Translations under genes and position numbers: made by a program
From: Candidatus Methylomirabilis limnetica
Lineage (GTDB): Bacteria > Methylomirabilota > Methylomirabilia > Methylomirabilales > Methylomirabilaceae
Length of the DNA stretch: 32,000 bases
Assembly: GCF_003044035.1 (NCBI RefSeq)
Contig: NZ_NVQC01000026.1
Coordinates: forward strand, 1 to 32,000
Reading direction: 5' to 3'
The notes under the pieces: generated by a model
The model's input: the letters and a program-made list of their open reading frames with translations, nothing else
What the model was told of the DNA's origin: nothing
Database searches by the model: none
Shown: positions 992-26,950 of the stretch, in pieces
Position numbering within the stretch: position 1 is the stretch's first letter
How the letters are laid out: the number at the start of each line of letters is the position of its first letter

Positions 992-1116
992 GTCGCTGTC
1001 CCGAATGGCGCTAGTTTAAGGATTATTTGCATGAAAAAAATAGGTGAAAACATTGACTAAACCGGAACAGCTATTGTGCGGCGACAGCTTAAACTAGCGC
1101 CATTCGTCGCTGTCCC
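992..1116. repeat. MITE-like or palindromic element: 18-bp perfect inverted repeats flanked by an 11-bp direct repeat
   Basis: GTCGCTGTCCC (992-1002) + GAATGGCGCTAGTTTAAG (1003-1020) + 67-bp AT-rich core + CTTAAACTAGCGCCATTC (1088-1105) + GTCGCTGTCCC (1106-1116). It lies 24 nt downstream of the stop of the last R-M operon gene. Confidence 0.6.
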
Positions 1117-1139
1117 TATTTACACGGCTTATGCCATCG

Positions 1140-2240: not shown

Positions 2241-2258
2241 GGCAATGGTTCTCCGGTG

Positions 2259-3725
2259 TTATGTTTGGGTGGTGAGTTCGGCGACGAGGGCAGAGAGGAG
2301 GTTCGCGGCGGTGGCGCGGGAGGAGGCGAGCTGCGTTTCCAACGCGTCCACCAAGGCCATCAGTTGCTCCACTTTGGCCACGATCCGGCGTTGTTCGGCG
2401 AGGGAAGGGACTGGAATCTCGAATTGTTCGATCATCGCTTTGGTTAACGCCTCGCGCGTTGCTCCGACTTGAACATCGTCAATCAAGTTTTGGACAACCG
2501 GACTCGCGAGAAACAATTCCAGGAATGGGGGAATGATTTCTGCACTCGGTCGAAGGATGCAGACGTGCTGGTTGACTCTCGCGCCTTCCATGTCTTTCGG
2601 CGCAGTGGCTACACGGCCAATCGAGGCACCTGTGATGTTCAGCAATACATCGTCAGCTTTGACGGTCACGTTTTTGAGCTTTTCGGCCTGCTCAGCGTTC
2701 AAGAACGCGAGGCCATGCCGCACAAATCCGCCGAAGTGGACATTCATCGACCGAATCAATGGCACTCCGGATTCTTGGTAGGATTCCTTCCCGCCCGACG
2801 GAGTGGAGCCGCTTCCGATCTTCGTGGTCAGTTCCTTCAGCTTTCGTGTTTCCCAGTCGGCCGATTCAGGATCATGCGGCACAAGCAAACCTTGGACGGC
2901 GAGGGTGAGGATGGATTTGCGGAGGTCGGCGGGGGGGATGGCGTAGGACGGGTGGAAGAGGAACGGGAGGTTGGCCGGGGTGGGCGCGTCGGCAAAGCGG
3001 GCCAGCGACGCGCGGGCGAGCGCGGCGTGCCGCGTCTCCCGTTCCTGCTGCTGCAAGACCAGCCGATCACACAACGCCATCAACTCATCCACCTTCGCCA
3101 CGATTCGCTTCTGCTCGGCGAGCGGTGGGACGACGACCAATAGGTCGCGAAGGTCGCCGAGAGAAACGTTGGGCATCGCGCCTCCCCGAGCTTTTGCCTT
3201 CACCTTGTTCGCAACGAACGAATCCAACTGCATTTTTAAAAACGGGATCTCGAATGACGCGCTAAAGCCTCGGATTATCGCCAACGCCTGATTGGTGTTC
3301 GCGGGCACGTCTCCAGAGCCAACGACGCAGGTCTTCCCGATTGTTCCCGCGATGGAAAAAAGGATGTCGCCACTTTCCAATTGGGATCGCTTCAGAAACT
3401 CATGCGTGGCTTCTGAGATGAACTGCTCCATCGAGGAACGATTGATGACTCCATCCGCGATGTTCTCCACCTTTACGAAAGGAATCCCTGATGCCTCATA
3501 TTGGTGACCGTAGGAGGTCGGCGTTGATCCCTTCGTAATCAACGATGCGATGCTCCCGAGAGTTTGTTTTGGCCATCCGCCGTTGGCCTCGAGCTCCGCA
3601 CTTTCGGAGGTTCTCAGGAGGCGGCCACCTATTGCGAAGTCGAGAATCAGCTCGCGCATCTTCGCCACCGCATCGGGCGCGTCGGCGAACTGGTCGAACT
3701 TCTCAAAAAACGTTTCCAGCTTCAT
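2259..3725 (-). CDS. hsdS: Type I restriction-modification specificity subunit
   Basis: 488 aa with two target-recognition halves, each followed by the conserved helix (LAEQKRIVAKVDELMALCDRL and LAEQRRIVAKVEQLMALVDALE). The start overlaps the hsdM stop as ATGA at 3722-3725. Confidence 0.95.
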   Translation of the reverse strand: MKLETFFEKFDQFADAPDAVAKMRELILDFAIGGRLLRTSESAELEANGGWPKQTLGSIASLITKGSTPTSYGHQYEASGIPFVKVENIADGVINRSSMEQFISEATHEFLKRSQLESGDILFSIAGTIGKTCVVGSGDVPANTNQALAIIRGFSASFEIPFLKMQLDSFVANKVKAKARGGAMPNVSLGDLRDLLVVVPPLAEQKRIVAKVDELMALCDRLVLQQQERETRHAALARASLARFADAPTPANLPFLFHPSYAIPPADLRKSILTLAVQGLLVPHDPESADWETRKLKELTTKIGSGSTPSGGKESYQESGVPLIRSMNVHFGGFVRHGLAFLNAEQAEKLKNVTVKADDVLLNITGASIGRVATAPKDMEGARVNQHVCILRPSAEIIPPFLELFLASPVVQNLIDDVQVGATREALTKAMIEQFEIPVPSLAEQRRIVAKVEQLMALVDALETQLASSRATAANLLSALVAELTTQT

Positions 3726-5197
3726 TCAGCAGTCCCGGCGGTGGCGGTGAGGGCTTGGTGGAGTTCCTGTTTCAGCGCGGCGCGGGTGGCGGCGATCTGG
3801 GCGAGGAGCTTTTCGTATTCGGGCAGGAGGTGGTCCACGTCGCCGGGGCCGGTGTCGGGGTTGTGCGGGTTCTTGAGGTCGAGGTTGAAGTTGCCGGCCT
3901 TGATGGTGTCGATGGAGACGCGCCAGGCTTGCTCGTTTTCCACGCGGGACTTGAAGCCGTCTTTTTCCTCGCCCCACCAGGCGCGCTCGGCCTCGAACTC
4001 CTCGATGCGGATGGGTTTGCCCTTGTTGTAGCTTTTGGCGCCGGGCGGATAGGGGTGCTCGTAATACCAGACGTGGGTGGTGGGCGCACCTTTGGTGAAG
4101 AAGAGGAGATTGGTGCGGATGCCGGTGTAGGGATTGAAGACGCCGTTGGGCAGGCGGACGATGGTGTGAAGGTTGCACTCGGTGAGGAGGGCTTCCTTGA
4201 TGCGGGTCTTGACGCCTTCGCCGAAGAGGGTGCCGTCGGGCAGCACGAGTCCGGCGCGGCCACCGGGCTTGAGGATCTTCATGAGGAGCACGAGAAAGAG
4301 ATCGGCGGTCTCGCGGGTGCGGAACTCGGCGGGGTAGTTGGACTCGATGCCGTCCTCCTCCATGCCGCCGAAGGGCGGGTTGGTGACAATGACGACCACG
4401 CGCTCCTTGGGCGACCAGTCGCGCAGCGGCCGGGCAAGAGTGTTGTCGTGCCGCACATTTGAGGGGACATCAATGCCGTGCAGGAGGAGATTCGTCATGC
4501 ACAGGACGTGCGGGAGGTGCTTCTTCTCGATGCCGGCGAAGCAGTCCTGGATGGTGCGTTCGTCGACCTCGGTCTTCGCCTGTTTGCGCAGGTGCTCGAT
4601 GGCGCAGACGAGGAAGCCTCCGGTGCCGCAGGCCGGGTCGAGGATGCTCTCGCCGAGCCTGGGGTCGACCTGCTCGACGATGAACTGGGTGACGGCGCGC
4701 GGGGTGTAGAACTCACCCGCGTTACCGGCCGACTGCAGGTCCTTGAGGAGCTTCTCGTAGATGTCGCCGAACATGTGGCGGTCATCGGAGGCGTTGAAGT
4801 CGATGCCGTTGACCTTGTTGATGACCTGCCGCATGAGTGTGCCGTTCTTCATGTAGTTGTTGGCATCTTCGAAGGTCATGCGGATGAGGCCGGCAATCTT
4901 GTCTGCGCCACCGGTCAGCGACTTCAGTTTGGGCAGAAGGGTGTTGTTGACGAAGTCGAGCAGGGCATCGCCGGTAATGCCCTCGGCGTCAGTGGCCCAG
5001 GTGGACCAGCGGAGGTGCGGCGGCAGCGGCGACTTGTAGTTGTCGCGAATAAGTTCGAGTTCCTTTTCGCGGTCGTCGAAGATCTTGAGGAAGAACATCC
5101 AGCCGAGTTGTTCGAGGCGCTGGGCGTCGCCGTACGTTCCGGCGTCCTTGCGCATGATGTCCTGGATGGACTTGACAATACTGGAGACGTTGGACAT
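3722..5197 (-). CDS. hsdM: Type I R-M N6-adenine DNA methyltransferase subunit
   Basis: 491 aa with an HsdM N-terminal region (FFLKIFDD), a SAM motif (DPACGTGGFL) and a catalytic NPPFG motif (VTNPPFGG). Confidence 0.95.
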   Translation of the reverse strand: MSNVSSIVKSIQDIMRKDAGTYGDAQRLEQLGWMFFLKIFDDREKELELIRDNYKSPLPPHLRWSTWATDAEGITGDALLDFVNNTLLPKLKSLTGGADKIAGLIRMTFEDANNYMKNGTLMRQVINKVNGIDFNASDDRHMFGDIYEKLLKDLQSAGNAGEFYTPRAVTQFIVEQVDPRLGESILDPACGTGGFLVCAIEHLRKQAKTEVDERTIQDCFAGIEKKHLPHVLCMTNLLLHGIDVPSNVRHDNTLARPLRDWSPKERVVVIVTNPPFGGMEEDGIESNYPAEFRTRETADLFLVLLMKILKPGGRAGLVLPDGTLFGEGVKTRIKEALLTECNLHTIVRLPNGVFNPYTGIRTNLLFFTKGAPTTHVWYYEHPYPPGAKSYNKGKPIRIEEFEAERAWWGEEKDGFKSRVENEQAWRVSIDTIKAGNFNLDLKNPHNPDTGPGDVDHLLPEYEKLLAQIAATRAALKQELHQALTATAGTAE

Positions 5198-5200
5198 GGG

Positions 5201-7570
5201 TCAGGCGGCTTCCTGGTAGAGATGGGTTTCGAGTTCTCTGATGGCGGCGAGGTACTTCTGCTTGCCACCAAAGAAGTTCACGATTTCGACCGGTGTGCCA
5301 AGCGTGGTTAGCGGATCGACCTTGAGGATTTCGAGAGACTCGACGCTCTTCAAGCCAGCGTCAGCGTACTTTTCGAGCAGAGCATCGAGCACGGCGCGCG
5401 CCCTGTCGCCATACTTGGCGAACACGTTGCGCTTGCGGACGTTCGCGGCTCGTTCGCGGCGCGTGAGCGGCGGTTGATCGAAGGCGACGTGACAGATGAG
5501 ATCGAAGGCGTCGAGGTCTTGGCCGACCTGTTCAGCCAGCTCGTCGAGGAACACCCCCTGACCGGCCAGCTCTTCGACGATGGCCTGCTTGCGGGCGGCG
5601 TCGTGCCAGGCATTCAGGAAGGCATTGAGTGATGTGTAGGCCTTGCGCACCGCCTTGCGGGTGTAGTCCTTGAGCGACTCGGTGATGAGCTTGCCGTCGA
5701 CGTCGAGGTATTGGACACGCTCGGTAACGACGGTGACTTCAACGTCGTTGACGTAGTACTTGACCGGCGTCTCGTGGATACCGAACGGCTTGGGCTCGAC
5801 GCCCCCTTCTGCCGTGGGGTCCGGGTACATGTCCTCCGACTCCGGCAAGGGTGCATCGTCGGGCGGTACCGGCGATTGATCTGCCTTCGGTTCGTAGATC
5901 TGGACGGGATCGCCGTCGAAGGTCGGGTCCGCAAACAGCGCAGTGGCCCGCTTGAAGTCCATTATGGTGAAGAAGAACTTGTTGTAGTCCTCGTTAATGC
6001 GCGTACCGCGGCCGATGATCTGCTTGAACTCGGTCGGGGAGTTGATGCGCTTGTCGAGCACGATCAGGTGGCAGGTCTGCGAGTCGACGCCGGTCGACAT
6101 CAGTTGCGAGGTGGTGACGATGACCGGGAAGGTGGACTCCGGATCGATAAAGTTGTCGAGTTGCGCCTTACCCTCCTCGTTATCCCCGGTTATCCGCATG
6201 ACGTACCTGCTGTTGGCAGCGGCAAGATCGGCGTTGGCGTTCACCAGCGCCTGGCGCATGCGCTCGGCGTGGTCAACGTTCGCGCAGAAGACGATCGTCT
6301 TGGCGAAGCGGTCGGTGGCCTTGAGGAACTCGGTGATCTTGGCGGCCACCAACTCAGTGCGTTTCTCGAGGACCAGACGCCGATCGAAATCGAGGTCGTT
6401 GTACTCCCGATCTTCAATCTCCTGACCGTACTTGTCGGTCTTGCCTTTCTCCGGACGCCACCCTTCGAGATCCTTATCGATACCGATGCGGACCACCTTG
6501 TAGGGCGCCAGGAAGCCATCTGCGATTCCCTGCTTGAGCGAGTAGGTGTAGATCGGGTCGCCGAAGTACTCGATGTTGGAGACGTCCCGGGTTTCCTTGG
6601 GCGTAGCGGTCAGGCCAATTTGCGTGGCCGACGAGAAGTAATCGAGTACCCTGCGCCAGGCCGCGTCGTCGGCCGCACTCCCGCGGTGACACTCATCCAC
6701 GACAACCAGGTCGAAGAAGTCAGGCGAGAACTGCTTGTAGATGTTCTGCTCTTCGTCGGTACCCGTAACCGCTTGGTACAGCGACAGGTAAATCTCGAAC
6801 GCCTTGTCGACTGTACGATTAGTGATCTTGGTCATCGCCTTACCGAACGGCTTGAAGTCGTTAATCTTGGTCTGGTCGGCGAGAATATTACGGTCGACGA
6901 GGAAGAGGATCCGCTTCTTGGCACCCGCTTTCCAGAGACGCCAGATGATCTGGAACGCCGTGTAGGTCTTGCCGGTGCCCGTCGCCATGACGAGCAGGAT
7001 GCGGTTCTCGCCGCGGGCGATGGCCTCGACCGTGCGGTTGATGGCGATAAGTTGGTAGTAACGCGGCGTTTTTCCCGAGCCGTCGTCGTTGTAGTCCTGG
7101 GTGGTCACCGCCTCCTGCGCGGCGGTGTAGCCCTTGCCCGCCCGGTAGCGTGCCCACAATTCTTCGGGCGACGGAAACTGGTCTAGCGGGATCTCCCGCT
7201 CCACGGTGCCGCCGGACCCTGTCCTGTCATGTTCCAGGAACGCGTCGCCGTTGGAGCTATAGGCGAAGGGTACATCGAGGATCTCTGCGTATTCGAGCGC
7301 CTGCTGGATACCTGCCCCCACCGCGTGCGTGTTGTCCTTTGCCTCGATGACCGCGATCGGGATGCCCGGCTTGTAGTAGAGGAGATAGTCGGCCTTCTTG
7401 GCCTCACCACGCTTGACAGTCTTACCCCTAACGATGACCCTGCCCTTCGTGAAATAGAACTCCTCGCGCAGCTGCGTCATCACGTTCCACTTGCTGCCGG
7501 TCGGGCCGACGAGCGCGGGGGTGATGAACTTCGTGCGGATGTCCGTTTCGGTCAGGGTCTTCTTATCCAT
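5201..7570 (-). CDS. hsdR: Type I restriction enzyme R subunit (helicase/endonuclease)
   Basis: 789 aa with an N-terminal nuclease region (ADYLLY...VIEAKD), helicase motif I (MATGTGKT) and motif II (VVDECHR). The C-terminal region resembles the EcoEI-type R C-terminal domain (recollection). The stop lies 3 nt before the hsdM start. Confidence 0.95.
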
Positions 7571-7871
7571 TGTTCCTGCGATCGCGGCTCACGCTCCAGG
7601 CCAGTAGGGTATGCGAGGCTAGCGGCATGGCAACGACTTCAGTGATCGATGTCATTCCGGGCTCTCGCAACCCCACAGTTCCCTCGTCTAGCCGATGCGC
7701 CCAACCATGAAGTGAGCCGCGTTAGAGGTCGACAAAGGCCGGCGACCCATCTCCCAAGAAAGCTCCACTTCTCAACGACGAATTTGTTCGCAATCTCCCA
7801 CACTTACCCCAACCGGTCAAGACTATTTAGCCGACAAACGCTGCCAGCTTCGGTGGCCTATCTCGGCCGCC

Positions 7872-8774
7872 CTATAGGCGATCAGCGGAGCTATTGGCCC
7901 CCAGTCCACCCCGGTTCAACATGTGGGCGTAGATCACCGTAGTGCTCACATCCAGATGACCAAGCAACTCTTGGACCGTCCGAATGTTATAGCCACTTCA
8001 CACAGGTGGGTGGCAAACGAATGACGGAAGGTGGGGCACTGCAGGTTGAGAGCACCCAGCGTCACGAGTCGCCTGCTTCACGGCCCGCTGCAGGACGGAC
8101 TCGTGTCGGTGGTGCCTGCGCTGTTCGCTGGTGATCCGGTCGGTGGCGTGGCGTGAGACCGGAACGACCCATTGCCACCCCCACTCCTTCAGCTAGACTG
8201 GCGTGGACCGGGCCGCGCCGGATGTCGCCCTTGAGTTGGACGTACCCTGCGACGGCTGGTGCCCCAAGGGGCGCAACGGCCGGGCCGGGCTCGGTGTCTA
8301 CGATCCGCTTGCTGGTCTCCCGATGCTCTGGAATCCGGCGACCGGGTAGCGTTACAGCGTGGGGAAGGGGAACAGATGACAGCGGGGATGCCACCCTTGA
8401 CATCGCGGTGTCCACCTCGCTTGACATGACCACCGCATCGCAGCGTCGATTACCACCACGAATCTGCCCTGCGGGAAGTCAACATGACGGGAGTGTAATC
8501 TGCACCACCCTCGGTGGCAGACGCGGTCCCTGTGGGCATCACTAACATACACTCTGCCACCTCATGCACGGCTCCCAAGGAACCTTTAGATAATCGCGTC
8601 GCGAAGGCTGGTCGAACTCTCAACGGGATCCTAGCCTACCTCCCTGACCGGGCGATGATCCGAATCACATACGAAGCGGCCCAGGGCCGCATGCCCCCTG
8701 CTGAGGCACCGATGTTCGCCACCAGACGGTACCACGCCCTGTTGCGGCAAGCTGGGCTGCGGCAGTTGCAGCAT
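7872..8774 (-). pseudogene. intI: integron-integrase-like tyrosine recombinase, decayed by several frameshifts and in-frame stops
   Basis: Manual minus-strand translation gives, in shifting frames: ...EWGWQWVVPVSRHATDRITSEQRRHHRHESVLQRAVKQATRDAG, then CPTFRHSFATHL, then [40 protein letters not shown]-stop (stop at 7872-7874). This tracks the IntI1 C-terminus as I remember it (W-x-W-x-VF...RRHH...QRAFK.AV..AGI.K.AT.HTLRHSFAT.LL..GYDIRTVQ.LLGH.DVSTTMIYTHVL..GG.GV.SPLD). The longest intact ORF in the track here is only 123 aa. The N-terminal limit (ATG at 8774) is approximate. Confidence 0.75.
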
Positions 8775-8805
8775 CTTGTTTTACGGCGAGCCGGCGTCTC
8801 CGGGA

Positions 8806-10458
8806 TTAGAAGTACTCGACCTCCTCAGGCGGACCGCTCACCGGGATCATCTCTTCGCCGGTGGGAATAGGTCTGCGCGGCGTGTATGTCGCGTGTGCCT
8901 GCTCGTCGTAGAAGTAGACTCCGGCTGCCTTGAGGGGTTGAAAATTCGGGTCTGCTGCGACGTGATCGCCCCCTCCGACAGAAGGAAGCCAGCCCTTAAG
9001 GTTGGCTTCATAGCTGAGGAGCCAAAGACGACCACGAAGCTCATCTGCGGTCATCGCTTGCTCCCATTGAGCAAGAGATGTGGTCCGCGACGCTTGGCCC
9101 TTGCTCCGAAGGTCGAGCGCAAGGAGGGCTACGACCACGTCTTCGAGGGTAGAGACGGCCTTCATCGCGTAATCATCGAGAGGGAGACCAAACAGGAGCA
9201 AGCCCCAGAGAGCCCACGCCACCTCGCTTCCGTGGCCCCTTGGCGCATGGTCAGCAAGGATGTTGTGCAGCGCCGAATGTAGGTTCTGCGTGTCGAGCTT
9301 GTAGCCTGCGTCCACGTACCGCTTGAGTTGCTCGATTGCGAACGGAAGGGTTCCGGGCTCAGAACACGCGGCTTGAAGCAGGAGATGCTGAAAGAGAGCC
9401 CAGTTTGAAGGAGCAACGATTAGCGACGACGCGCGGCTGATTGCGTACCGGAGAACCGGATCACCAGGGTTTGCCGACGCGAGTTCAAAGGAACGATCGA
9501 AGTATCGGATGAGGTCGTATCGCTGTGAGCGAACCCCGGGGCGGAAGGAGAAGATCCGGAGTTCCGAAGACCAAGGGCTGTCCACTGGACTCGGCAGATC
9601 GATGATGCGGGTCTTGGTGGGATTGAGCTGAAGCTCGAACTCGTTCAGTACGCCCTGGAGGATTGAGAGCGCCCTTTCTGCATCGGAGTAGCTGGCGAAG
9701 CCCAACTCGTAATCGTCGATGTAACGGAAGCCGTTGAGAGCCACCTGCTTGGCCAGAAGAACGTCGGCCGCAGTGAGAACCACCTCAGCGATCACGAGGG
9801 AGGTGTCCGGACCAATCGGGATTCCGATAGTCTGCTGATCTTGCGCGTTTCGCAGGCATCGGTCGATCATGTTGCCGAGTAGGGCAGTTGACGTCTTCTG
9901 GATCTTGGCGACGGCCTTGAAATGGAGCGCCCACGGCACGCTGTGTGTGTAGAGAGATGGGTAGAACTGCGAAATGTCCGCACGGAGGATCACGCGTGAT
10001 GTTGATTGGACCCGGGCGCGGTGGATTGGACGGTCGCTGAGTGCGGCTTTGCGGTCGATGGCCCGTTTGCCGGAGGCGTCGACCTGGGGGCTGGTTAGTG
10101 AAATCGGCGATTTGACGCAGTGTGCCACGATCGTCTGCCAGTGCGCCGCAACTAGTGAGGCAATCTGAGAGAAGCTCACGGGGTTTGGGATGCCCAGCCG
10201 TCGCCGAAGGCTGCCCGGTCGAGCGAGGTTGTGGACTGCGATCTGGGAAGAAAATGGAGGCGGCGGGTTCGGGTGAAACGCCGCGGGCAAAACAGTCAGT
10301 CTTGAGGCCGCGAGCGAGGCGAAGGGCTTCGTGGTAAATGGAGGAGGAAGCTCCCTCGCGAAGTAGCCGCGAGCTATCAGAGCGCCAAGGTCAGCCACTC
10401 GACTCGTACACTCCTTGCCCTCCAGCGCTAGCCCGCTCAGCCGGGCACCATCAGGCAT
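8806..10458 (-). CDS. stand-alone reverse transcriptase, UG/Abi (defence-associated) type, with a helical C-terminal extension
   Basis: 550 aa. RT motifs seen: LRRRLGIPNPVSF, RADISQFYPSLYTHSVPWAL, GIPIGPDTSLVIAEVVL, RYIDDYELGF (YxDD, encoded at ~9712-9723) and LQLNPTKTRI. After these comes ~270 aa of helix-rich sequence (NWALFQHLLLQAA...EVAWALWGLLLFGL...VVVALLALDL). I recognise no group II maturase/En domain and no nuclease, nitrilase or primase domain. Confidence 0.85.
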   Translation of the reverse strand: MPDGARLSGLALEGKECTSRVADLGALIARGYFARELPPPFTTKPFASLAASRLTVLPAAFHPNPPPPFSSQIAVHNLARPGSLRRRLGIPNPVSFSQIASLVAAHWQTIVAHCVKSPISLTSPQVDASGKRAIDRKAALSDRPIHRARVQSTSRVILRADISQFYPSLYTHSVPWALHFKAVAKIQKTSTALLGNMIDRCLRNAQDQQTIGIPIGPDTSLVIAEVVLTAADVLLAKQVALNGFRYIDDYELGFASYSDAERALSILQGVLNEFELQLNPTKTRIIDLPSPVDSPWSSELRIFSFRPGVRSQRYDLIRYFDRSFELASANPGDPVLRYAISRASSLIVAPSNWALFQHLLLQAACSEPGTLPFAIEQLKRYVDAGYKLDTQNLHSALHNILADHAPRGHGSEVAWALWGLLLFGLPLDDYAMKAVSTLEDVVVALLALDLRSKGQASRTTSLAQWEQAMTADELRGRLWLLSYEANLKGWLPSVGGGDHVAADPNFQPLKAAGVYFYDEQAHATYTPRRPIPTGEEMIPVSGPPEEVEYF

Positions 10459-10908
10459 CGTCGAACCGCCGGCTGCAGCGGCTTGCTGGGTATCGAGTTG
10501 TCCTCAGCGGCCAGACGGAGAAACAAAGCAGAACTGATTTCTCTCCACCGCGTTGGGCGGCCGCCCTTTCCAGTCTACTCCACCGCCGCGGTCCCAGGTG
10601 TGGGTGTTGGTGGGTGCCTCTCGAGCCGAGGCGGCGGTGCGGCCGGACGGTGCTCCCCTTCATCGGCGAGCATCCTGGCAGAGCGGAGGGCGGGACGTCA
10701 TGCGCTCCGACGACCCCCGCACGGGGACCGGCGCTCGTCGGGTGCGAGCCTCTGCATCGTCGTCTCAGCTCCGCAGCCACCTGTATCCGTGGATGCACGC
10801 GAGTAGGCGCTAGGACGCGCTGGGCCACGTTGAGCAAAAGATGGCGGAGAAGCAGCCAGCGATCGTCGAGGTTACGGCACCTGCAGGGCAGCCACCCGCC
10901 GTTCCTCA

Positions 10909-11817
10909 CTAGAGCATGTCCATTCGAAGCTGCGCGAACGCGAAGGCCCAGTGAGCCCAAGCGGATGGCGGGCGGGGGGCACTGAGAATTTCATCCGCCT
11001 GGGGGACCGAACCAACCACCTCCACTAACTGGTCCTTCAAGGGAAGGAGCTCTGTGAGGGGGGCAGGGTGCGCGCGAAGCCATCCAAGTAAGATCTGCGG
11101 GGAGGGCACCTTCGTCACCGCCGACAGGGAGCCCGCCACGAACTCACCGCCACTCGAGGCGCCTTTCGAGGAAGTGAAACTGATCCCGGATTGGAAGCCA
11201 GCCTGGAGCTGCCCACTGAGGTGCACCTGGCCGGAAAGCGTGCGGCCGACAGGATTGGCCACCCAGAGCAGCTCGGGGGCGAGGTGATCGAGCCGGCAGA
11301 CCGCGGGCGTCACATAATAGAATGCCCCAGCCTGATCGACCCCCCCGAGCCCGACCATCTCGATAGTCTCCTGCGTGGTAGCCCTGGCAGCCGTCGCCAC
11401 CGGGTCGCGGCGCAGATCGACTCCACAGCGAGCGACCCGGAAATGCAGGACGCGTAGCCACAGCCCCATCCCGGACTCCGCCAGCAACGAGAGGCTAGCC
11501 CGTACGCCCGCGGGGCTCGGCCGCGCCGCATTGAGAACCACATCGACCTCCTCCGGGGCCCAGGGCATGACGAAAATCTGACCGAGGCCCCGCAGCAGCC
11601 AGAGGGGGGAAATCTGATACCGGTCAGCCAGCACGCTAAGGTGCGGGCTTCGCAGCTCCACCTTCCCCGTCTCGGCCGACGAAATCGCATTCAGGCCCAC
11701 CCCCAGCGCTGCGGCCATCGTGGTCTGCGTGAGCCCCAGGGCGGCCCGCACGAGGGCCAGGCGGCGCCCGACCTCTTGGAGCTGCAGGCGCTCTTGACTA
11801 GATCGCTCTCTTCTCAT
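10909..11817 (-). CDS. XRE-family HTH protein with an uncharacterised ~220-aa C-terminal domain
   Basis: ORF track 10909..11946. I place the start at the ATG at 11817, because the product MRRERSSQERLQLQEVGRRLALVRAALGLTQTTMAAALGVGLNAISSAETGKVELRSPHLSVLADRYQISPLWLLRG is a canonical Cro/CI-type HTH. The 43 codons upstream cross an AT-rich promoter-like region. I do not recognise the C-terminal domain. Confidence 0.7.
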   Translation of the reverse strand: MRRERSSQERLQLQEVGRRLALVRAALGLTQTTMAAALGVGLNAISSAETGKVELRSPHLSVLADRYQISPLWLLRGLGQIFVMPWAPEEVDVVLNAARPSPAGVRASLSLLAESGMGLWLRVLHFRVARCGVDLRRDPVATAARATTQETIEMVGLGGVDQAGAFYYVTPAVCRLDHLAPELLWVANPVGRTLSGQVHLSGQLQAGFQSGISFTSSKGASSGGEFVAGSLSAVTKVPSPQILLGWLRAHPAPLTELLPLKDQLVEVVGSVPQADEILSAPRPPSAWAHWAFAFAQLRMDML

Positions 11818-11828
11818 GTGAATTTCAT

Positions 11829-11857
11829 TTGACAAAAGAAATATAGCTATGTAAGAT
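11829..11857 (+). promoter_or_regulatory. sigma-70-like promoter reading towards the transposon end and tnsAB
   Basis: TTGACA (11829-11834), a 17-nt spacer, then TAAGAT (11852-11857). The spacer contains the 8-bp palindrome ATAGCTAT (11843-11850). Confidence 0.4.
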
Positions 11858-11868
11858 AGGTCAGACGA

Positions 11869-12128
11869 TGTGGCGTATGTGACACCAAGCATCTCACATG
11901 ACACGAGAATCTTCAATCGCAAAGGCCTGGACGCCCAGCGAGGCAATCGCCGTGTCTCGGTTTAGGTGGCCACCGCGCTAGCGCCACGGAGCCGGTGGAC
12001 ACCCAGGACCGGACGCCGGATCAACTAGTTGCTGACGGAGGTGACCTCTTGCCAGACGCGTCACTTGGAGAATCCGTAGCAGTCGCTCCGACCGGTAGCG
12101 TCAATCGACGAAAACCTGTCACCAAGGG
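11869..12128 (+). repeat. candidate Tn7-like right-end region with reiterated GAC(A/G)CC(A/C)AG motifs
   Basis: TGTGGCGTATGTGACACCAAG starts at 11869 (the Tn7 family terminus is TGT...). Direct copies of the core are GACACCAAG at 11881, GACGCCCAG at 11930 and GACACCCAG at 11999, with related GTCACCAAG at 12118. The region sits directly upstream of tnsA, where Tn7-type right ends lie. Confidence 0.3.
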
Positions 12129-12154
12129 ATCTCGGTTTCGAGGAAGAGGACAAG

Positions 12155-14857
12155 ATGCTAACCAGCGATGATCTCCGTGCGTGGTCTCAACGTCTGAGTC
12201 TCTCGGAGGAGGGGCGGGCCGCAATCGATCGTGTGCGATGCTCCCCTCCTTCTCGCCTCGTGGGGGGCGGTAGGAACAACGTCAGCGGGCGGTACCCGAG
12301 CAAAAAGATGGGCGCCATGATCCAGTTTGAGAGCCACCGCGTGGAGTTGCCCACGATCTATGAACTGGAGCACGATCCCGACGTGCTCGAGTTCTACGAT
12401 CAGCCACCCCCGATCGAGTTGCGCTACGAGAGCAAGAGGGGGCGGCGGCTGATTGTTTCACACACCTCAGATTTCTTCGTCCTCCGAAAGGAGGCGGCGG
12501 GATGGGAAGAATGCAAGACTGAAGAGGGGCTGGTCAAACTTGCCGACGACGCCCCTCACCGGTACCAGCACACGGAGAATGGTCGCTGGCGCTGTCCGCC
12601 GGGCGAGGCCTATGCCGCGCCACGCGGCCTCTACTACCGCTTCCGCTCATCGCAGAAGATCGACTGGGGCCTCCAGCGGAACCTGCAGTTCCTGGACGAT
12701 TACTTCCGTGGGGAGCGCGTCCCCGTAAGTCCCGACGCCGAGCAGGCCGTGCGGGCCCAGCTCCGGACTGAGCCGGGGATCACATTGGCCGCCCTCGTGC
12801 GCAAGACTGAGGGGGCCGCGACGCAAGACGACATCCATTTCCTGATCGCCCGTGAGGAGATCTACGTGGGCCTATCGGCCGCGTTTCTCGGGGAGCCGGA
12901 CACGGTGCGGGTCTTTGTGTCGAAGGAGACCGCAGTCGCGTATGGGCGGGTGGTGAGCCCGCACCCTGGCCCGGCCCCCGCTGGGTGCCCCTACCTGGAT
13001 CTGCGCGTGGGAGGCGCGCTCGTGTGGGATGGGAGGGTCCGCAAGATCGTAAATGTCGGACAGACGACGATCAGCCTCCTGGGCGACGACTCGCACGTGG
13101 TGGACCTCTCGGAGGCGCAGTTGGAGGCGTTGGTGCGAGATGGTCGGATTAGCCCTGTCCCGGAAGCATCGGACGCGAGACCCCACGAGGAGGTGCTCCA
13201 GCGTCTCCAGGCAGCAGATGACCGAACGCTCGCAGTCGCCAACCGTCGGGACCGGATTCTCCGCGGCCAGGTGGGCGGGGACCCGCCTCCCAACGAGCCG
13301 CAGGTACCGGAGCGGACCCTCCGGCGTTGGAAGGCCTGGTTCCGGCAGGCCGAGGCGCACTATGGGAACGGCTTCGTCGGGCTCTTGCCGCGCACCCGTC
13401 AGCGGGGGAATCGGACCCCGAGGTTGTCAGAGGAGGTGAAGGCACTGCTTGAGGAGGCCATCCTGACGGACTACGAAACGCTCAAGCAAAAGACTAGGTA
13501 TGCCTGTTGGCAGGCGCTTAAGCTGAGATGCAATGCGCAAAAGGTTGTCGCCCCCAGTTACCCGACATTCTGCGAGGCGGTGAAAAAGCGTCCACAACTC
13601 CTAAAAACGCGCAAACGGCAGGGCCGTCGGGCCGCCTACGCGCATGAAGTACCTTATTTGTATTTAGACCAAACCACACCCCGTCATGGAGATCGGCCCT
13701 TTGAGATCGGGCATATCGACCATACCCAACTGGATTTGGAGTGTGTGAGTGCCGACGACGGCACGGGGCTCGGACGTCCATGGCTGACCCTTTTCACTGA
13801 TGCCTACTCCCGTAGGGTCTTGGCCTTCTACTTATCGTACGATCGGCCCTCGTCTCGCGCCTGTATGATGGTCGTCCGAGAGTGTGTCCGCCGGCACAGG
13901 CGGCTCCCGCAGATCGTGGTAGTGGACGGAGGTGCCGAGTTCGGGGGGAACTACTTTGAGGGCCTACTGACCATGTTTCAAATCCTGAAGAAAGTCCGGC
14001 CGCCAAGCAAGGCCCGGTTCGGCTCGGTGTGTGAGCGGATGTTTGGGACCACCAATACACAATTTTTGTACAACCTTGCCGGCAATACCCAGCTCACCCG
14101 ACGCCCTCGGCAGGTGACCAAGTCCACAAATCCTAAGAAGCACGCCGTCTGGTCCCTCGGCGAGCTCTACGAGCGCCTCGATGAGTACCTATACGAGGTT
14201 TTCGATACACTGTCCCATCCGGCACTGGGTCAGAGTCCCCGCGAGGCCTTTACGACGGGACAGGCGCAGAGTGGGCTGCGCTCCCATCGGCTCATTCCGT
14301 ACGACGAGACCTTCTTGCTTCTCACGTTGCCCCTCACGGCCAAAGGAACGGCCAAGGTCATGCCGGGGCGCGGTGTGAAGATCAATCATCTCTACTATTG
14401 GGCTGAGGTCTTTCGCGATCCTGAAGTCGAAGGGCAGTCGGTACCTGTGCGCTACGACCCCTTTGACGCGGGGCTCGCGCATGCCTTCGTCCGGGGCAGG
14501 TGGCAGCGGTGTCATTCGGAGTACTACCACGTGTTCCAAGGCCGGACGGAGCAAGAAGTGCGCCTCGCGACGAAGACACTCCTGGCGATGCGCCGTCAAT
14601 ACGCTCAGGACCGGGCCATCACCGCCAAGCGGCTCGCCGAACTGGTGCAATCCGTCGAAGTCCAAGAACAGCAGCTCATACAGCGGCGACGGGACCAGGA
14701 GAGTCTGAGGATACGGGGCGTCAGCACGGGGGCGGTGAGCGCTCCCGTGCCGCCCCGTCCTGCGGCTTCGCCACAGACCAGTGGCAGGGCTGCCGCGGGG
14801 GACGCGCCCGAACCTGAAACACCCGCACCGGATCGTAAGCCGTATGGGAGATTCTAA
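12155..14857 (+). CDS. tnsAB: fused TnsA-like endonuclease / TnsB-like DDE transposase
   Basis: 900 aa. The N-terminal part reads NVSGRYPSKKMGAMIQFESHRVELPTIYELEHDPDVLEFYDQPPPIE...SHTSDFFVLRKEAAGWEECK, which is the TnsA N-terminal E/D/K layout. The C-terminal ~550 aa form a Mu/TnsB-type core with IGHIDHTQLDL, LTLFTDAYSRRVLAF, VVVDGGAEFGG and GSVCERMFGTTN (DDE). It is a single uninterrupted frame. Confidence 0.9.
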   Translation: MLTSDDLRAWSQRLSLSEEGRAAIDRVRCSPPSRLVGGGRNNVSGRYPSKKMGAMIQFESHRVELPTIYELEHDPDVLEFYDQPPPIELRYESKRGRRLIVSHTSDFFVLRKEAAGWEECKTEEGLVKLADDAPHRYQHTENGRWRCPPGEAYAAPRGLYYRFRSSQKIDWGLQRNLQFLDDYFRGERVPVSPDAEQAVRAQLRTEPGITLAALVRKTEGAATQDDIHFLIAREEIYVGLSAAFLGEPDTVRVFVSKETAVAYGRVVSPHPGPAPAGCPYLDLRVGGALVWDGRVRKIVNVGQTTISLLGDDSHVVDLSEAQLEALVRDGRISPVPEASDARPHEEVLQRLQAADDRTLAVANRRDRILRGQVGGDPPPNEPQVPERTLRRWKAWFRQAEAHYGNGFVGLLPRTRQRGNRTPRLSEEVKALLEEAILTDYETLKQKTRYACWQALKLRCNAQKVVAPSYPTFCEAVKKRPQLLKTRKRQGRRAAYAHEVPYLYLDQTTPRHGDRPFEIGHIDHTQLDLECVSADDGTGLGRPWLTLFTDAYSRRVLAFYLSYDRPSSRACMMVVRECVRRHRRLPQIVVVDGGAEFGGNYFEGLLTMFQILKKVRPPSKARFGSVCERMFGTTNTQFLYNLAGNTQLTRRPRQVTKSTNPKKHAVWSLGELYERLDEYLYEVFDTLSHPALGQSPREAFTTGQAQSGLRSHRLIPYDETFLLLTLPLTAKGTAKVMPGRGVKINHLYYWAEVFRDPEVEGQSVPVRYDPFDAGLAHAFVRGRWQRCHSEYYHVFQGRTEQEVRLATKTLLAMRRQYAQDRAITAKRLAELVQSVEVQEQQLIQRRRDQESLRIRGVSTGAVSAPVPPRPAASPQTSGRAAAGDAPEPETPAPDRKPYGRF

Positions 14858-16047
14858 TGGATTCTGCGGAACATGCATTCCCCCCCACCCTCCTGACTCA
14901 GCCGTGGCCCGAACGGCTCAAGCACTTTCACGGCTATATCATGGGGCACCCGCACCTGGTGGCCGCCAAGGATCGACTGCTGGCAGCCATTCGAGAACTA
15001 GAGCCCAATTCGCTGGTTCTGGTCCTCGGTCCCACCGGCGTCGGCAAGACGACGTTAAAGAACGGAATTGAGAAAGAGCTCACCAAGGGCCTCCAGGAGG
15101 CAATGGTGACCGACCCCGGGAGGATGCCGTTCATCAGCGTCGAGGCGGTCGCGCCCGAGTCGGGCAACTTTAACTGGCGCGACTACTTCCGGCGGCTCCT
15201 GCTCCAGGGGGCAGAGCCGCTGGTGGACCACAAGCGGAAGGGCTCGCTGACGGAGGAAGAGGGCATGCCTGTCCTGCCGCTCATTCCCGGTACGAGAAGG
15301 ACCGGAGCGGAATACCAGCACGCCGTCGAACAGCTTTTGCGCTGCCGACGGCCGGAGGCGGTCCTGATTGACGAAGCGCAACACCTCGCCATCATGGTTT
15401 CAGGGCGTAAATTGTCCGATCAACTCGATGTCATCAAGTCGCTTGCGAATCGCAGCAGCACGCCCCATGTCCTGTTCGGGACCTATGGACTGCTCCCGTT
15501 CCGCAACTTAAGTGGTCAGTTGAGCCGCCGCAGCCTGGATATCCACCTTCCGCGCTATCGGGCCGACGACTCCCGGCAATGGGAGATTTTCCTCCATGTA
15601 CTGCGGGACTTCGAGTCGCAGCTACCGCTCCGGGAGCGCCCGGACCTCGTCCAGCATGCGGATTTTCTGTACGAACGCAGCATTGGCCTCGTGGGGGTGG
15701 TCAAAAACTGGTTGCTGCGGACGCTTGCCCCCGCGCTGGAAGCCGGGAAGACGACCCTCACTCTGCGCGACCTGGAGCGGCATGTACTCTCCGTCCCGCA
15801 ATGCCAGAAGATTTTGTCAGAGGCGCTGAACGGTGAGGACCAGATGGCCGAGAGCGCCGCTGAGCGCGCGCGGCTGCGCACGACCCTGGGGCTGGATACC
15901 AATCACACTGGCGCACAACCGCGGACAACGGAGGGGGCCACCCAGAACGGCTCCAAGGCCGCTGCGGCGCGGGCCACGAAGCTCCGACCTGGTCGGCGCC
16001 GGCCTAAGCGCGATGAGATTGGCACCGTGGTCTCCAGCCATGTATGA
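14857..16047 (+). CDS. tnsC: AAA+ ATPase of the TnsC/TniB family
   Basis: 396 aa with Walker A (LGPTGVGKTT) and Walker B (VLIDEAQHL). The ATG overlaps the tnsAB stop (TAATG at 14855-14859). Confidence 0.9.
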   Translation: MDSAEHAFPPTLLTQPWPERLKHFHGYIMGHPHLVAAKDRLLAAIRELEPNSLVLVLGPTGVGKTTLKNGIEKELTKGLQEAMVTDPGRMPFISVEAVAPESGNFNWRDYFRRLLLQGAEPLVDHKRKGSLTEEEGMPVLPLIPGTRRTGAEYQHAVEQLLRCRRPEAVLIDEAQHLAIMVSGRKLSDQLDVIKSLANRSSTPHVLFGTYGLLPFRNLSGQLSRRSLDIHLPRYRADDSRQWEIFLHVLRDFESQLPLRERPDLVQHADFLYERSIGLVGVVKNWLLRTLAPALEAGKTTLTLRDLERHVLSVPQCQKILSEALNGEDQMAESAAERARLRTTLGLDTNHTGAQPRTTEGATQNGSKAAAARATKLRPGRRRPKRDEIGTVVSSHV

Positions 16048-17950
16048 GCCCTGGGACCTGTCCCCTCCTGTCGTGCCACCGCGAAGTTCCCTATACTGCC
16101 TGGAGCCCATCGGCATTGGCACACCCTTCGTAGAGAGTCTCACAGGCTATATTGCCAGGCTGGCATGCGCGCATGCGGTTTCGGTGGCAGATCTGGTTAA
16201 GCTGAAGCTTATAGGAGATATGGCGAAGAGTCTACCGTTGAGCCCTCAAGGGGGAACACCGCATTGGACCTCTCGGCATGGCTTCAACCCGATGGGTTAT
16301 ACCCTCAATTGCATGACAGACACATCAGGAAAATGGATCGAGGCGTTGGAAGCCGCCACCCTACGCCGGGATCTCTCCGCGTTAACCCTCCTACCCTTTG
16401 CAGGTGGGGTCACCGCGCCGTTCCTTGTTCGCAAGGTTCGCGCGTGGTGCCCACGCTGTTATCAGGAGAGACGAGAGGCGAACAGCGACGTGTATGACTC
16501 CCTGCTCTGGGCTCTCCGCGTGGTAACAGTCTGCCCGCGGCATCAACAGCAGTTAGTAACCACGTGCCCGCACTGTGATCGAGAGCAACACCCCCTGGCC
16601 GCCTATTCGTACCCTGGCTCTTGCTCGCGATGTCGGCGCTGGCTTGGTCTTCAACAAGACACGAGCGGGGCCGACGGGGCAACTCGCCAAGAGGTAGTGG
16701 AGTATCAGTTCTGGGTGGCCAACACTCTCGGCGAATTCCTCGCGACGGCGCTACGCTTGCCGTCTCGATTGCCAAGGCCCAATATTAGGCAGAATCTCTG
16801 GTCCTATGTCAATCACCTCACCGGGGGCAACATGACGGCCTTCGCCGACCTCGTCCAGTCCCCTCGGATCCGAATCTGCTCCTGGCTAGCAGGGCAGCGT
16901 ATCCCACGTCTCGATTCCCTACTGCGGGTATGCTACCACCTGGGGATCTCACTGGTCACGCTTGTCACCGGCGATCCGTGGGACCCCGATGTCAGCGGGC
17001 CTCTGAAGGAGTCAGCCCGCTTCCGGCCCAACAGAGGCCGTGTGTGGCCTCATCGCCCGAACGAAGTACGTCGTGTGCTCAAAGCGGCCCTTCATGAGGA
17101 ACCCACTCCCAGCGTTGCTGCAATTGCCCACCGCATGGGTTACAGTGGGACAGGCCGCCTCTACCAAGTCGATCAAGATCTGTGCAGACGGATTACGGCC
17201 AACCACCGCAGGGCAAGATATTCCCCGGGGCGGAAAAGGCCGGGGGCGGGAAGAATCTGTGATGAGGCCACTATCAAGCAATCTCTCGAGCAATCCCTCG
17301 CCCAAGCGCAGCCCACCGCGCTCCATCGTCTTGCCCAGCGCCTCGGATACGCCAATGCTGTTGTCCTGCGCTCGAAGTACCCCGATCTCTGTCGGGCGAT
17401 CAGTGCTAAGCGCATTGCGTTGAGGAAGACCCGTCTAAACGCAGTTGAACTAGCACTACAAGCAGCCCTCGAGGAGGATCCGCCACCCTCATTGCGCGAG
17501 ATGACTAGACGACTAGGCCCCTCATGGCTCCAATCCCTGCGACAGCATTTCCCAGTCCTGTGCGACGCCCTTGAGAACCGACGCAAACAATACCGCGACA
17601 GCCGCGGGGCAGAACTGCAAAAAGCATTTATGGCCCTGTTGTCCGAGGATCCACCGCCCTCTGTCGTCAAGGCATGTCAGCGGGTTGGGGTATCGCAGGG
17701 CACCTTTTCTTCAAAGTTTCCCGATCTACGGAGTGCTGTTGCGGCAAGGTATGTGAAGCATCGGGCAGAAGCTAAACAAAAGCGGAAAGAATTGTTGCGT
17801 GAAAAAATACGTCATAGTGTGTTGCAGCTTCATCGTCAGGGTATATTCCCTTCTTGGTCACGTGTGATGAGTCTTCTAAGCAAAGACTCTCTGAAAGATT
17901 GGGATCTTCGCGCTAGATATTTCAAGGAAGCCAGACAAGAGTTAGAATGA
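16040..17950 (+). CDS. tniQ: TniQ/TnsD-family target selector with a C-terminal tandem HTH-like repeat array
   Basis: ORF track 15833..17950. I place the start at ATG 16040 (MYEPWDLSPPVVPPRSSLYCLEPIGIGTPFVESLTGYIARLA, a typical TniQ N-terminus). This start overlaps the tnsC stop as ATGTATGA. A Cys cluster follows: WCPRCY...VCPRH...CPHCD...CSRCRRW. Five ~57-aa repeats follow from 17060. Confidence 0.88.
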   Translation: MYEPWDLSPPVVPPRSSLYCLEPIGIGTPFVESLTGYIARLACAHAVSVADLVKLKLIGDMAKSLPLSPQGGTPHWTSRHGFNPMGYTLNCMTDTSGKWIEALEAATLRRDLSALTLLPFAGGVTAPFLVRKVRAWCPRCYQERREANSDVYDSLLWALRVVTVCPRHQQQLVTTCPHCDREQHPLAAYSYPGSCSRCRRWLGLQQDTSGADGATRQEVVEYQFWVANTLGEFLATALRLPSRLPRPNIRQNLWSYVNHLTGGNMTAFADLVQSPRIRICSWLAGQRIPRLDSLLRVCYHLGISLVTLVTGDPWDPDVSGPLKESARFRPNRGRVWPHRPNEVRRVLKAALHEEPTPSVAAIAHRMGYSGTGRLYQVDQDLCRRITANHRRARYSPGRKRPGAGRICDEATIKQSLEQSLAQAQPTALHRLAQRLGYANAVVLRSKYPDLCRAISAKRIALRKTRLNAVELALQAALEEDPPPSLREMTRRLGPSWLQSLRQHFPVLCDALENRRKQYRDSRGAELQKAFMALLSEDPPPSVVKACQRVGVSQGTFSSKFPDLRSAVAARYVKHRAEAKQKRKELLREKIRHSVLQLHRQGIFPSWSRVMSLLSKDSLKDWDLRARYFKEARQELE

Positions 17951-18034
17951 CGTTCCAATCATTAAGATCCTCCTTTTCCATGCCATAGAGAACTACCCCA
18001 CAGCGAGCCGCGGGGCATCAACCCTCCCAGATTG

Positions 18035-18071
18035 AAACCATAACATGGCCGCAGCGGCCATGTTATGGTTT
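18035..18071. terminator. 37-bp perfect palindrome, a hairpin resembling a bidirectional terminator
   Basis: AAACCATAACATGGCCGC-a-GCGGCCATGTTATGGTTT. A 15-bp GC-containing stem is followed by TTT on either strand. It lies 85 nt after the tniQ stop. Confidence 0.45.
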
Positions 18072-18111
18072 AAGTGACATCTCTCGCTGTTCCTGGGCTC
18101 GGAGAAAGCGC

Positions 18112-18141
18112 TTGACATCCCCCGCGTTCCGCATTGATATT
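18112..18141 (+). promoter_or_regulatory. sigma-70-like promoter upstream of the methyltransferase gene
   Basis: TTGACA (18112-18117), an 18-nt spacer, then GATATT (18136-18141). Confidence 0.35.
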
Positions 18142-18251
18142 GCACATGATATGCGCTTGAAGCCGCTGCTTACCTTTTCATCGTGTCGTGAGCATCGGCC
18201 ATATCGTGGGACGCGGCTGAGCCTTGCAGTGAGTGGGCGTGGAGAGTGAGG

Positions 18252-18989
18252 ATGGGTCATAAGAAGGCGGGATATGTCCCGGCGCTGGGCTGGGATTTTC
18301 TCACCCCGCTCTACGATCCCCTGGTTCGCCTTACTACGCGCGAGATGAGCTTCAAAAGTCGCCTCCTGGATGAAGCAGGCATCGACGAAGCCGCTCGGAT
18401 TCTCGACGTGGGATGCGGCACGGGGACGCTACTCCTGCTAGCGAAGCGCAGGTCAAAATCTCTGTTGGCTATTGGCCTGGATGGTGATATGAACGTTCTG
18501 GGTATTGCGAGGTCAAAAGCCCACAGGCAGGTCGAAGAAATCGCGCTGGTCCAGGCGTTCTGCTTTGATATCCCGTTTGCCGATGGCGCGTTCGATCGAG
18601 TCCTCTCGAGCCTGATGCTGCACCATCTGACGCGATCCGAGAAGGTCCGAACGCTGGAAGAGATCTTTCGCGTCCTGCGCCCAGAGGGAGAGCTGCACGT
18701 CGCCGACTGGGGGCGACCCCACACCCTGCTCATGCATGCGCTGGCTTTTTCTGTGCGCCTCGGTGACAGTTTCGCCAGGACTGCTGACAACATGAAGGGG
18801 CTCCTGCCTGCGCTCTTCCGGGACGCCGGGTTTGAGGAAGTCTCGGAAACGGCTCGGCTTGCAACGCTATTTGGTACGTTGTCGCTGTATAAGGCGCGCA
18901 AGCCATCCACGGCTGCCGCTCAGGGGCACGCCGGAAGCTTCTCTGTGCGTAACTACAAGGTAGATAGGCTAAAGACTGAAGGTTGTTAG
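18252..18989 (+). CDS. class I SAM-dependent methyltransferase
   Basis: ORF track 18246..18989. ATG 18252 is preferred because GGAGAG lies 5 nt upstream. The SAM motif ILDVGCGTGTLLL and later FDRVLSSLMLHHL / LRPEGELHVADW are typical of the Methyltransf_11/25 fold. Confidence 0.85.
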   Translation: MGHKKAGYVPALGWDFLTPLYDPLVRLTTREMSFKSRLLDEAGIDEAARILDVGCGTGTLLLLAKRRSKSLLAIGLDGDMNVLGIARSKAHRQVEEIALVQAFCFDIPFADGAFDRVLSSLMLHHLTRSEKVRTLEEIFRVLRPEGELHVADWGRPHTLLMHALAFSVRLGDSFARTADNMKGLLPALFRDAGFEEVSETARLATLFGTLSLYKARKPSTAAAQGHAGSFSVRNYKVDRLKTEGC

Positions 18990-19107
18990 GGGTAAAGCAG
19001 TGATCACGCAACACTTCGGGCATATGAGTTGGATGGTGAAATCGCAATGCGTTGAAGAGCCTTCAGCCTTCGGCCTAAACACCTAAGTAGTTACCTCGGA
19101 GGTTACA

Positions 19108-26426: not shown

Positions 26427-26790
26427 ACCCTATCCCACCCCAACCGTCTTCTGGTTTTTCCCCTTTAATTGGTTCAGCCATCTCGATGTACTCCCTCTGC
26501 TGACCTAACAGCGAGAAGACACCATCTAAGGAAGATCCCTATTTTTTGCTTAGCTGGCAACAGCCGGATTTTTTAAAGTTTTTGCGTACTAATCGGTCGG
26601 CTTTGGAATCTGTCAATACCTGTGAGACACCTGACATCCGAATTTGGTTTAGCACCTCATCGCTCCTGGAGACCGGCCTTGGTTTATTATACGTATTGCA
26701 AGAAGTGCGGTTTTGCGGTCCGTCACGTGACGGCACGGAACCCGCAACTCATCACGAAGAAAGATGCTCGCCTTCATTTTGTTGAGGGTA

Positions 26791-26950
26791 GATACCCCGC
26801 GGCTTGCCGCGAGTTCGTCATACCGGCGGAAACCGGTATCCAGAGGGCCAGAATGGATTCCCCCGTATCAAGTACGGGGCAGGCGTGTCAAGCACGGAAT
26901 GACGGTCCAGAACAGAAGACGATACCCCGCGGCCTGCCTCGGGGTAGTTA
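26791..26950. repeat. REP/MITE-like multi-hairpin element bounded by an 18-nt direct repeat
   Basis: GATACCCCGCGGCTTGCC (26791-26808) and GATACCCCGCGGCCTGCC (26921-26938) match 17/18. Between them are the hairpins ATACCGG-cggaaa-CCGGTAT (26820-26839) and CCCCGTA-tcaag-TACGGGG (26861-26879). Spurious translations (VIPAETGIQ, ...ARNDG) resemble the widespread VIPAKAGIQ / RGNDG repeat-derived pseudo-proteins. Confidence 0.55.

Follow-up and report, generated by a model that had tools for sequence, protein, structure and literature searches.

A long open reading frame (ORF) in the 32,000-nt stretch of Candidatus Methylomirabilis limnetica DNA analyzed here (the window, which starts at position 1 of contig C4 of genome G000, a draft assembly of 40 contigs that is 99% complete) raises the question of whether one polypeptide naturally combines the TnsA and TnsB transposition proteins and, if so, what kind of mobile element encodes it. 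Our analyses indicate that, with high probability, the locus is a Tn7-like transposon that looks complete, is Cas-free and belongs to the published clade with fused TnsAB proteins, whose studied members are PmcCAST, McCAST, CyCAST and Tn5469. A Tn7-like transposition module had been proposed in a first-pass annotation of the letters alone, and this proposal was supported by matches of TnsAB, TnsC and TnsD to known proteins, by the identification of both transposon ends and by a TCTCT target-site duplication. The module consists of three genes:

12155-14857, + strand: tnsAB, 900 amino acids, an open frame without a stop, encoding a fused TnsA PD-(D/E)xK nuclease and TnsB DDE transposase with a C-terminal KPYGRF tail
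14857-16047, + strand: tnsC, AAA+ adaptor with Walker A at residues 58-65 and Walker B at D172/E173
16040-17950, + strand: tnsD-type TniQ gene, 636 amino acids, ATG at 16040, with a TniQ core followed by four tandem helix-turn-helix (HTH)-like repeats of ~60 amino acids

The 900-amino-acid frame was found to be uninterrupted, as originally described, and the three genes are co-directional and overlapping, with their reading direction towards the nearest transposon end. The tnsAB stop and the tnsC ATG have one base in common (TAATG, in which the ATG begins with the final A of TAA; TTCTAATGG), and the tnsD ATG at 16040 overlaps the tnsC TGA stop by 8 nt (ATGTATGA), so that both overlaps reported by the first-pass annotation were reproduced from the sequence. 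These data show that all three genes are intact and that their translation is coupled. A GTG start at 15833, which would give the third gene its longest frame (705 amino acids), was rejected, as homologues from the PDB and from related loci align only from residue 70-71 of that frame, i.e., position 16040; because the homologue alignments begin exactly at this ATG, the third protein is taken to be 636 rather than 705 amino acids long.

The nuclease motifs that had been read by eye at the N-terminal end of TnsAB (FES..E, SDFFV and EECK) were located at residues 57-64 (QFESHRVE), 103-109 (HTSDFFV) and 117-121 (WEECK), and Pfam profiles matched TnsA-like_N at residues 74-162 (26.3 bits), rve at 538-616 and Mu-transpos_C at 728-774. 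Across 19 aligned TnsAB homologues that are 50-78% identical to the window protein, the nuclease residues E59, D106, E119 and K121, the DDE residues D522, D591 and E627 (69 and 36 residues apart) and the tail residues Y897 and F900 (YGxF motif) were all invariant. The closest structural match was observed with chain M of PDB entry 9bw1 (the PmcCAST TnsABC structure, in which this chain has 898 amino acids), which aligns with residues 6-859 of the window protein (E 2.5e-288, bit score 962) and therefore ends before the tail; the four nuclease residues align to this chain, and D522, the first DDE aspartate, faces an alanine that is perhaps an engineered inactive mutant. The TnsB structures 9y7b, 8rdu and 7svw also matched TnsAB (1e-11 to 1e-14). 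Overall, these results bear out both the TnsA-type endonuclease and the complete TnsB/Mu-type DDE core, and the catalytic residues found in the N-terminal domain argue that it is not an unrelated domain.

We also considered whether the 900-amino-acid frame could be an artefact, in which a misassembly or frameshift has merged a tnsA gene with a separate tnsB gene. The sole basis for this explanation is that the assembly is a draft of 40 contigs, and no positive evidence for it was found. A database search retrieved at least 3,564 TnsAB relatives of ~885-905 amino acids, which are 50-78% identical and aligned almost completely; the best 120 of them are 852-916 amino acids long with a query coverage of 92-100%, and a genome scan identified TnsAB homologues at 79 loci (labelled L0xx below) from Acidobacteriota, Cyanobacteriota, Myxococcota, Actinomycetota, Bacillus and others. 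In contigs assembled from sequencing runs of two other studies (sets X7 and X9), positions 12112-13428 and 13442-14053 are spanned by contigs of X9, and 13332-15525 by one contig of X7, with 0 gaps and no indel listed inside tnsAB; hence no stop or frameshift between the two halves was found in the parts of the frame that these contigs cover. Thousands of homologues of equal length, the alignment of the solved 898-amino-acid PmcTnsAB along nearly the whole protein and the gap-free contigs over 12112-14053 and 13332-15525 make an artefact exceedingly improbable. As the PmcTnsAB structure aligns, relatives of the same architecture abound and contigs from other studies are free of gaps, the TnsA-TnsB fusion is genuine, and the natural single polypeptide of the first-pass annotation stands. 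Its further remark that such fusions occur only in a minority of Tn7-like lineages needs refinement, as they are neither rare nor unstudied: an entire clade in the literature is defined by the fusion (PMC9881144, PMC10293859, PMC11915506), and a structure, 9bw1, has been solved.

The two remaining proteins were assigned by profile and structure matches. TnsC matched the Pfam families AAA_22 and TniB as well as PmcTnsC (8fcu_Q, 9g0f_A; E 1e-87), and both its Walker A (GPTGVGKT, 58-65) and its Walker B residues (D172/E173) are intact. The third protein, initially annotated as TniQ, does contain a TniQ-family domain (PF06527, 63 bits); however, it matched PmcTnsD (8v32_J, 1.6e-76) far better than PmcTniQ (1e-36), and four tandem HTH-like repeats of ~60 amino acids were detected at residues ~340-580 (z of 8-14 against shuffles in repeat-versus-repeat comparisons), while a candidate fifth repeat was rejected (z <1.5). 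Because of these two features we refine the earlier assignment to a putative TnsD-type DNA-binding selector; long C-termini with multiple HTH motifs are a hallmark of TnsDs (PMC10293859). A metagenome scan with this TnsD yielded distant relatives only (34% identity or less). Two tandem TniQ-family genes after tnsC (a dual TniQ-TnsD arrangement) were seen in relatives L019, L018, L020, L062, L063 and L068; the window element has one.

The boundary of the element next to tnsD lies within the window and comprises two features:

17951-18079, no strand: transposon end adjoining tnsD ("left end" in the naming of Hsieh & Peters), with the terminus ...AAGTGACA at 18079
18080-18084, no strand: 5-bp target-site duplication TCTCT, with a second copy at C1:91436-91440, just before the end at C1:91441

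Read inward from 18079, this end is TGTCACTTAAACCATAACATGGCC, and it contains two ATAACATGGCC sites in opposite orientation that make a perfect 18+18 palindrome at 18035-18071 (inverted pair 18040-18066). The other end lies off the window, on contig C1, where it starts at 91441 (TGTGACTTAC..., TGTGACTTACTCGATAATTTGGCC) and carries four direct ATAAnnTGGCC sites. The termini thus read TGT...ACA, with repeated ATAAnnTGGCC sites, and the end pattern, which was derived from these two ends, matched the genome only at these two places even when 3 mismatches were allowed. The genomes of the same genus, whose homology to the DNA right of tnsD starts at window position 18099-18102, provide the empty site: in six of them, sequence corresponding to C1 ~91200 abuts that of C4 ~18100. 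A search of the genomes of 40 relatives found no TnsAB homologue, with a single weak match to a DDE domain (E 4e-4); because none of these relatives has one, the element is a lineage-specific acquisition. An end placed upstream of tnsAB, as in Tn7, was rejected, as the 209-bp spacer at 11947-12154 contains no end-like sequence and the layout of the clade puts the end after tnsD. Among the related loci, the order tnsAB, tnsC, tnsD, end, target is the norm of the clade, and in the acidobacterial relatives L027, L042, L052 and L044 sites in both orientations and then a ...TCACA terminus were found just after tnsD. Sites in both orientations are known from the left end of clade elements, >99% of whose insertions place this end beside the target (PMC9881144).

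The element accordingly extends from C1:91441 to the end of that contig, across an unassembled join between C1:96167 and C4:1, and over window positions 1-18079, i.e., at least 22.8 kb, so that two contigs (C1 and C4) are joined by one transposon with defined ends. The end of C1 carries a fragment of a UPF0236 (ISLre2-like) transposase, and the window itself begins with a repeat:

1-729, no strand: assembly-breaking repeat, identical to C21:1-729 and, over bases 9-729, to the end of contig C27; carries a DUF6788 gene

The contig break falls inside the transposon because of these repeats and insertion sequence (IS) copies. The 729-bp repeat was very deep in all sequencing runs compared.

Since the interior is broken at a repeat and the closest solved relatives are CRISPR-associated transposons (CASTs), we asked whether cas genes, an array and a small TniQ could lie in the unassembled part. 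No CRISPR-like array was present in the window and no Cas domain was found in window ORFs of at least 140 amino acids, in agreement with the first-pass annotation, and this result extends to the whole 99%-complete assembly, in which Cas7/DevR, Cas5 and Cas1 profiles gave no match and only one TniQ gene, with no second copy, was found. As most clade members are Cas-free as well (PMC9881144), we consider a CAST with a hidden Cas region very improbable.

Some observations weigh against the assignment to a complete transposon of the fused-TnsAB clade or limit what it implies. The TnsA-like_N score of 26.3 bits is 0.2 below the curated cut-off of 26.5 bits for PF08722. An IS (UPF0236 transposase) and the 729-bp repeat interrupt the interior of the element, so that its size is given only as at least 22.8 kb. 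Its landing site is not a tRNA gene, unlike those of the characterized members, and with one insertion known, site-specific targeting by TnsD is something we infer. Finally, clean cut-and-paste transposition is not guaranteed, because PmcCAST, the closest solved relative, yields cointegrates despite its TnsA domain.

By analogy with the studied members of the clade, transposition would begin with the binding of TnsD to DNA beside the left end, here a conserved promoter block, after which TnsD would recruit a TnsC ring on which the C-terminal tail of TnsAB would dock. The DDE domain would then cleave and join the 3' ends and the fused nuclease would cut the 5' strands, with cut-and-paste insertion and a 5-bp duplication as the predicted outcome. 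Another possibility is that the fused TnsA domain is poorly active and that movement is largely replicative, by way of cointegrates. A notable fraction of PmcCAST products are cointegrates, although a TnsA domain is present (PMC9881144), and an engineered PmcCAST-derived variant formed 15.7% cointegrates, which was called comparable to native PmcCAST (preprint, 10.64898/2026.05.29.728539). In McCAST, on the other hand, wild-type TnsAB gave 0/150 cointegrates as compared to 149/150 for the D106A mutant (Hsieh & Peters 2022, PMC9881144), and in the element studied here E59, D106, E119 and K121 are invariant and the single genomic copy has the form of a simple insertion flanked by a 5-bp duplication. 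We therefore regard a largely replicative route as unlikely.

The left end of the transposon faces a sequence that is conserved across the genus:

18099-18145, + strand: genus-conserved block with a promoter-like site TTGACA-18-GATATT at 18112-18141, upstream of an S-adenosylmethionine (SAM)-methyltransferase gene at 18246

This block is almost invariant across the genus over positions 18102-18145, and the insertion point lies 28 bp upstream of the -35 hexamer. No tRNA gene was found next to the end, in the window or in contig C4, and the arrangement of the tRNA-targeting branch, in which the left end lies ~25-35 bp downstream of a tRNA gene, was not observed. An Rfam search of the flank revealed no RNA family beside the end and gave chance-level matches only. 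Among the related loci, a minus-strand tRNA was located ~300 bp beyond tnsD in seven cyanobacterial loci (L029, L038, L062, L063, L068, L072 and L084). Given this geometry in relatives, we infer that TnsD may recognize the conserved promoter block, 20-65 bp from the left end. It is also possible, although we favor it less, that the site was not chosen by TnsD recognition of this block, i.e., that landing was relaxed or untargeted, as proposed for Tn5469, or that a feature of the other flank was recognized. A single insertion is known and its site is unlike the tRNA sites of the studied relatives; Tn5469, which has a single TniQ, is described as inserting without a fixed site (PMC9881144), and PmcCAST without Cascade shows off-target integration driven by TnsABC. 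A search for a common target beside the left ends of the four long-TnsD acidobacterial relatives (L027, L042, L052 and L044) found none, as the flanks were unrelated (TSCPD, NACHT, ThiF/E2 and no match), which is a further point for untargeted landing. However, the long multi-HTH C-terminus is typical of DNA-binding TnsDs, and the transposon end that has sites in both orientations points towards the conserved block, whose edge is ~20 bp away, similar to the 26-33 bp in tRNA-homing relatives. Recognition of the promoter block by TnsD remains our working interpretation. A stronger proposition is that, with its 636-amino-acid, four-repeat TnsD, the element represents a novel type of attachment site in the fused-TnsAB clade, namely a conserved promoter block of the sigma-70 type before a housekeeping gene; this is tentative, and we would put it on the doubtful side.

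Phylogenetic analysis (FastTree, 41 TnsAB sequences) grouped the window TnsAB with three database proteins (P0004-P0006, 73-78% identity), and together these sequences nest in an Acidobacteriota-dominated sub-clade (98% local support), beside cyanobacterial clades.

Comparison with known systems showed the greatest similarity to PmcCAST (type I-B2, from the Peltigera membranacea cyanobiont 210A; PDB 9bw1, 8fcu, 8v32 and 9g0f), which has a TnsAB of 898 amino acids as compared to 900 here, a like gene order, and TnsC and TnsD proteins homologous to those of the window (1e-87 and 1.6e-76, respectively). PmcTnsAB is itself a natural fusion, in which residues 73-172 form the nuclease, 509-634 the DDE domain and 855-898 a C-terminal hook (PMC11915506); the nuclease and DDE regions correspond to 74-162 and ~518-630 in the window protein. 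Unlike PmcCAST, the element described here has no Cascade genes, CRISPR array or second small TniQ; its TnsD has 636 amino acids with four HTH-like repeats rather than 462, and, unlike that of PmcCAST, its target is no tRNA-Leu gene. McCAST and CyCAST (type I-D) as well as the Cas-free, tRNA-targeting cyanobacterial elements (PMC9881144, PMC10293859) share with it a fused TnsAB whose active-site aspartate is also D106, TnsAB sites in both orientations in the target-facing end, a 5-bp duplication and the placement of tnsD beside that end. They differ in that the host studied here is not cyanobacterial and its TnsAB branches with acidobacterial sequences, and in that they attach on the 3' side of a tRNA whereas the insertion here is intergenic and promoter-proximal. 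Cyanobacterial Tn5469 likewise carries a fused TnsAB, TnsC and one TniQ-family gene and is Cas-free, but it is devoid of cargo and is considered to have no fixed insertion site; the element described here has a long TnsD-type selector and at least 17 kb of cargo. Escherichia coli Tn7 resembles the element in its combination of nuclease and DDE transposase, AAA+ adaptor and TniQ-domain selector as well as in its TGT/ACA termini, repeated transposase sites and 5-bp duplication. In Tn7, however, tnsA and tnsB are separate genes, tnsE is present and the reading direction of the tns genes is inward from the right end, while here it is outward, to the end nearest the target; at the sequence level the similarity is marginal (7pik TnsB, E 0.005).

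The window part of the element also includes the following cargo:

10909-11946, - strand: Xre-type HTH gene, divergent from tnsAB
8806-10458, - strand: DRT6-type defence reverse transcriptase (PADLOC Drt6, 573 bits)
1140-7570, - strand: type I restriction-modification operon hsdR-hsdM-hsdS, then a PDC-S11/DUF4268 gene

With DRT6, the type I restriction-modification system and PDC-S11, the cargo consists mostly of anti-phage defence genes. The Xre-type HTH gene was rejected as a conserved regulator of tnsAB, as it has no homologue in the 79 related loci. Between hsdR and the DRT6 gene, a stretch of 1.2 kb (7571-8805) has no long ORF. Among contigs from metatranscriptome libraries, one set spans the whole cargo block (1077-11657) and another covers 13751-17059 (the 3' end of tnsAB, tnsC and part of tnsD). 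Contig depths in the X6 RNA library were ~146 for the cargo, ~23 for tnsC-tnsD and ~5 for tnsAB; contig depths cannot rank genes, and these values give a weak hint of low tns expression.

Several short repeats were found around the insertion. A hairpin-forming sequence of 35-40 nt at 17987-18026, between the tnsD stop and the site palindrome, recurs in further genomes of the genus and is similar to window positions 26784-26818 and 26921-26948; it may be a host-type repeat that colonized the transposon, or a terminator. On the left flank, ~229 bp at C1:91208-91436, which separate the conserved flank from the transposon end, were found in G000 only, where relatives have ~60 bp; this segment is composed of several short G/C-rich hairpins (CCCTCTTTTCCAAAGAGGG, CCCCCTTTGAAAAAGGGGG, CCCCCTTTGCCAAAGGGGG). 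At 18949-19094, the intergenic space separating the methyltransferase gene from that of YbjQ holds a repeat of ~145 bp, of which the genome (C3, C5, C7, C14 and C40) and relatives contain many copies; contigs from several runs break at this window position.

The fused-TnsAB clade is already well described (Hsieh & Peters 2022, PMC9881144; Faure et al. 2023, PMC10293859; PMC11915506), and natural TnsAB fusions have been published, mutated, engineered and solved by cryo-electron microscopy, so the impact of this locus on the field is small. A three-protein set has likewise been shown to support homing, as TnsAB, TnsC and TnsD are enough for it in CyCAST (PMC10293859). The sole unusual features are the host and the landing site, beside a promoter and not after a tRNA gene, of which the non-tRNA site is only a modest new point. 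For the genome itself, a defence island of at least 22.8 kb is explained as a single transposon with defined ends that joins two contigs. For the clade, the locus documents a member in a non-cyanobacterial host with a non-tRNA landing site, and its TnsD is a candidate for a new specificity. If this candidate specificity is real, landing would occur upstream of a gene instead of downstream of a tRNA, and the acidobacterial and NC10 branch of the clade would home to the promoters of protein genes.

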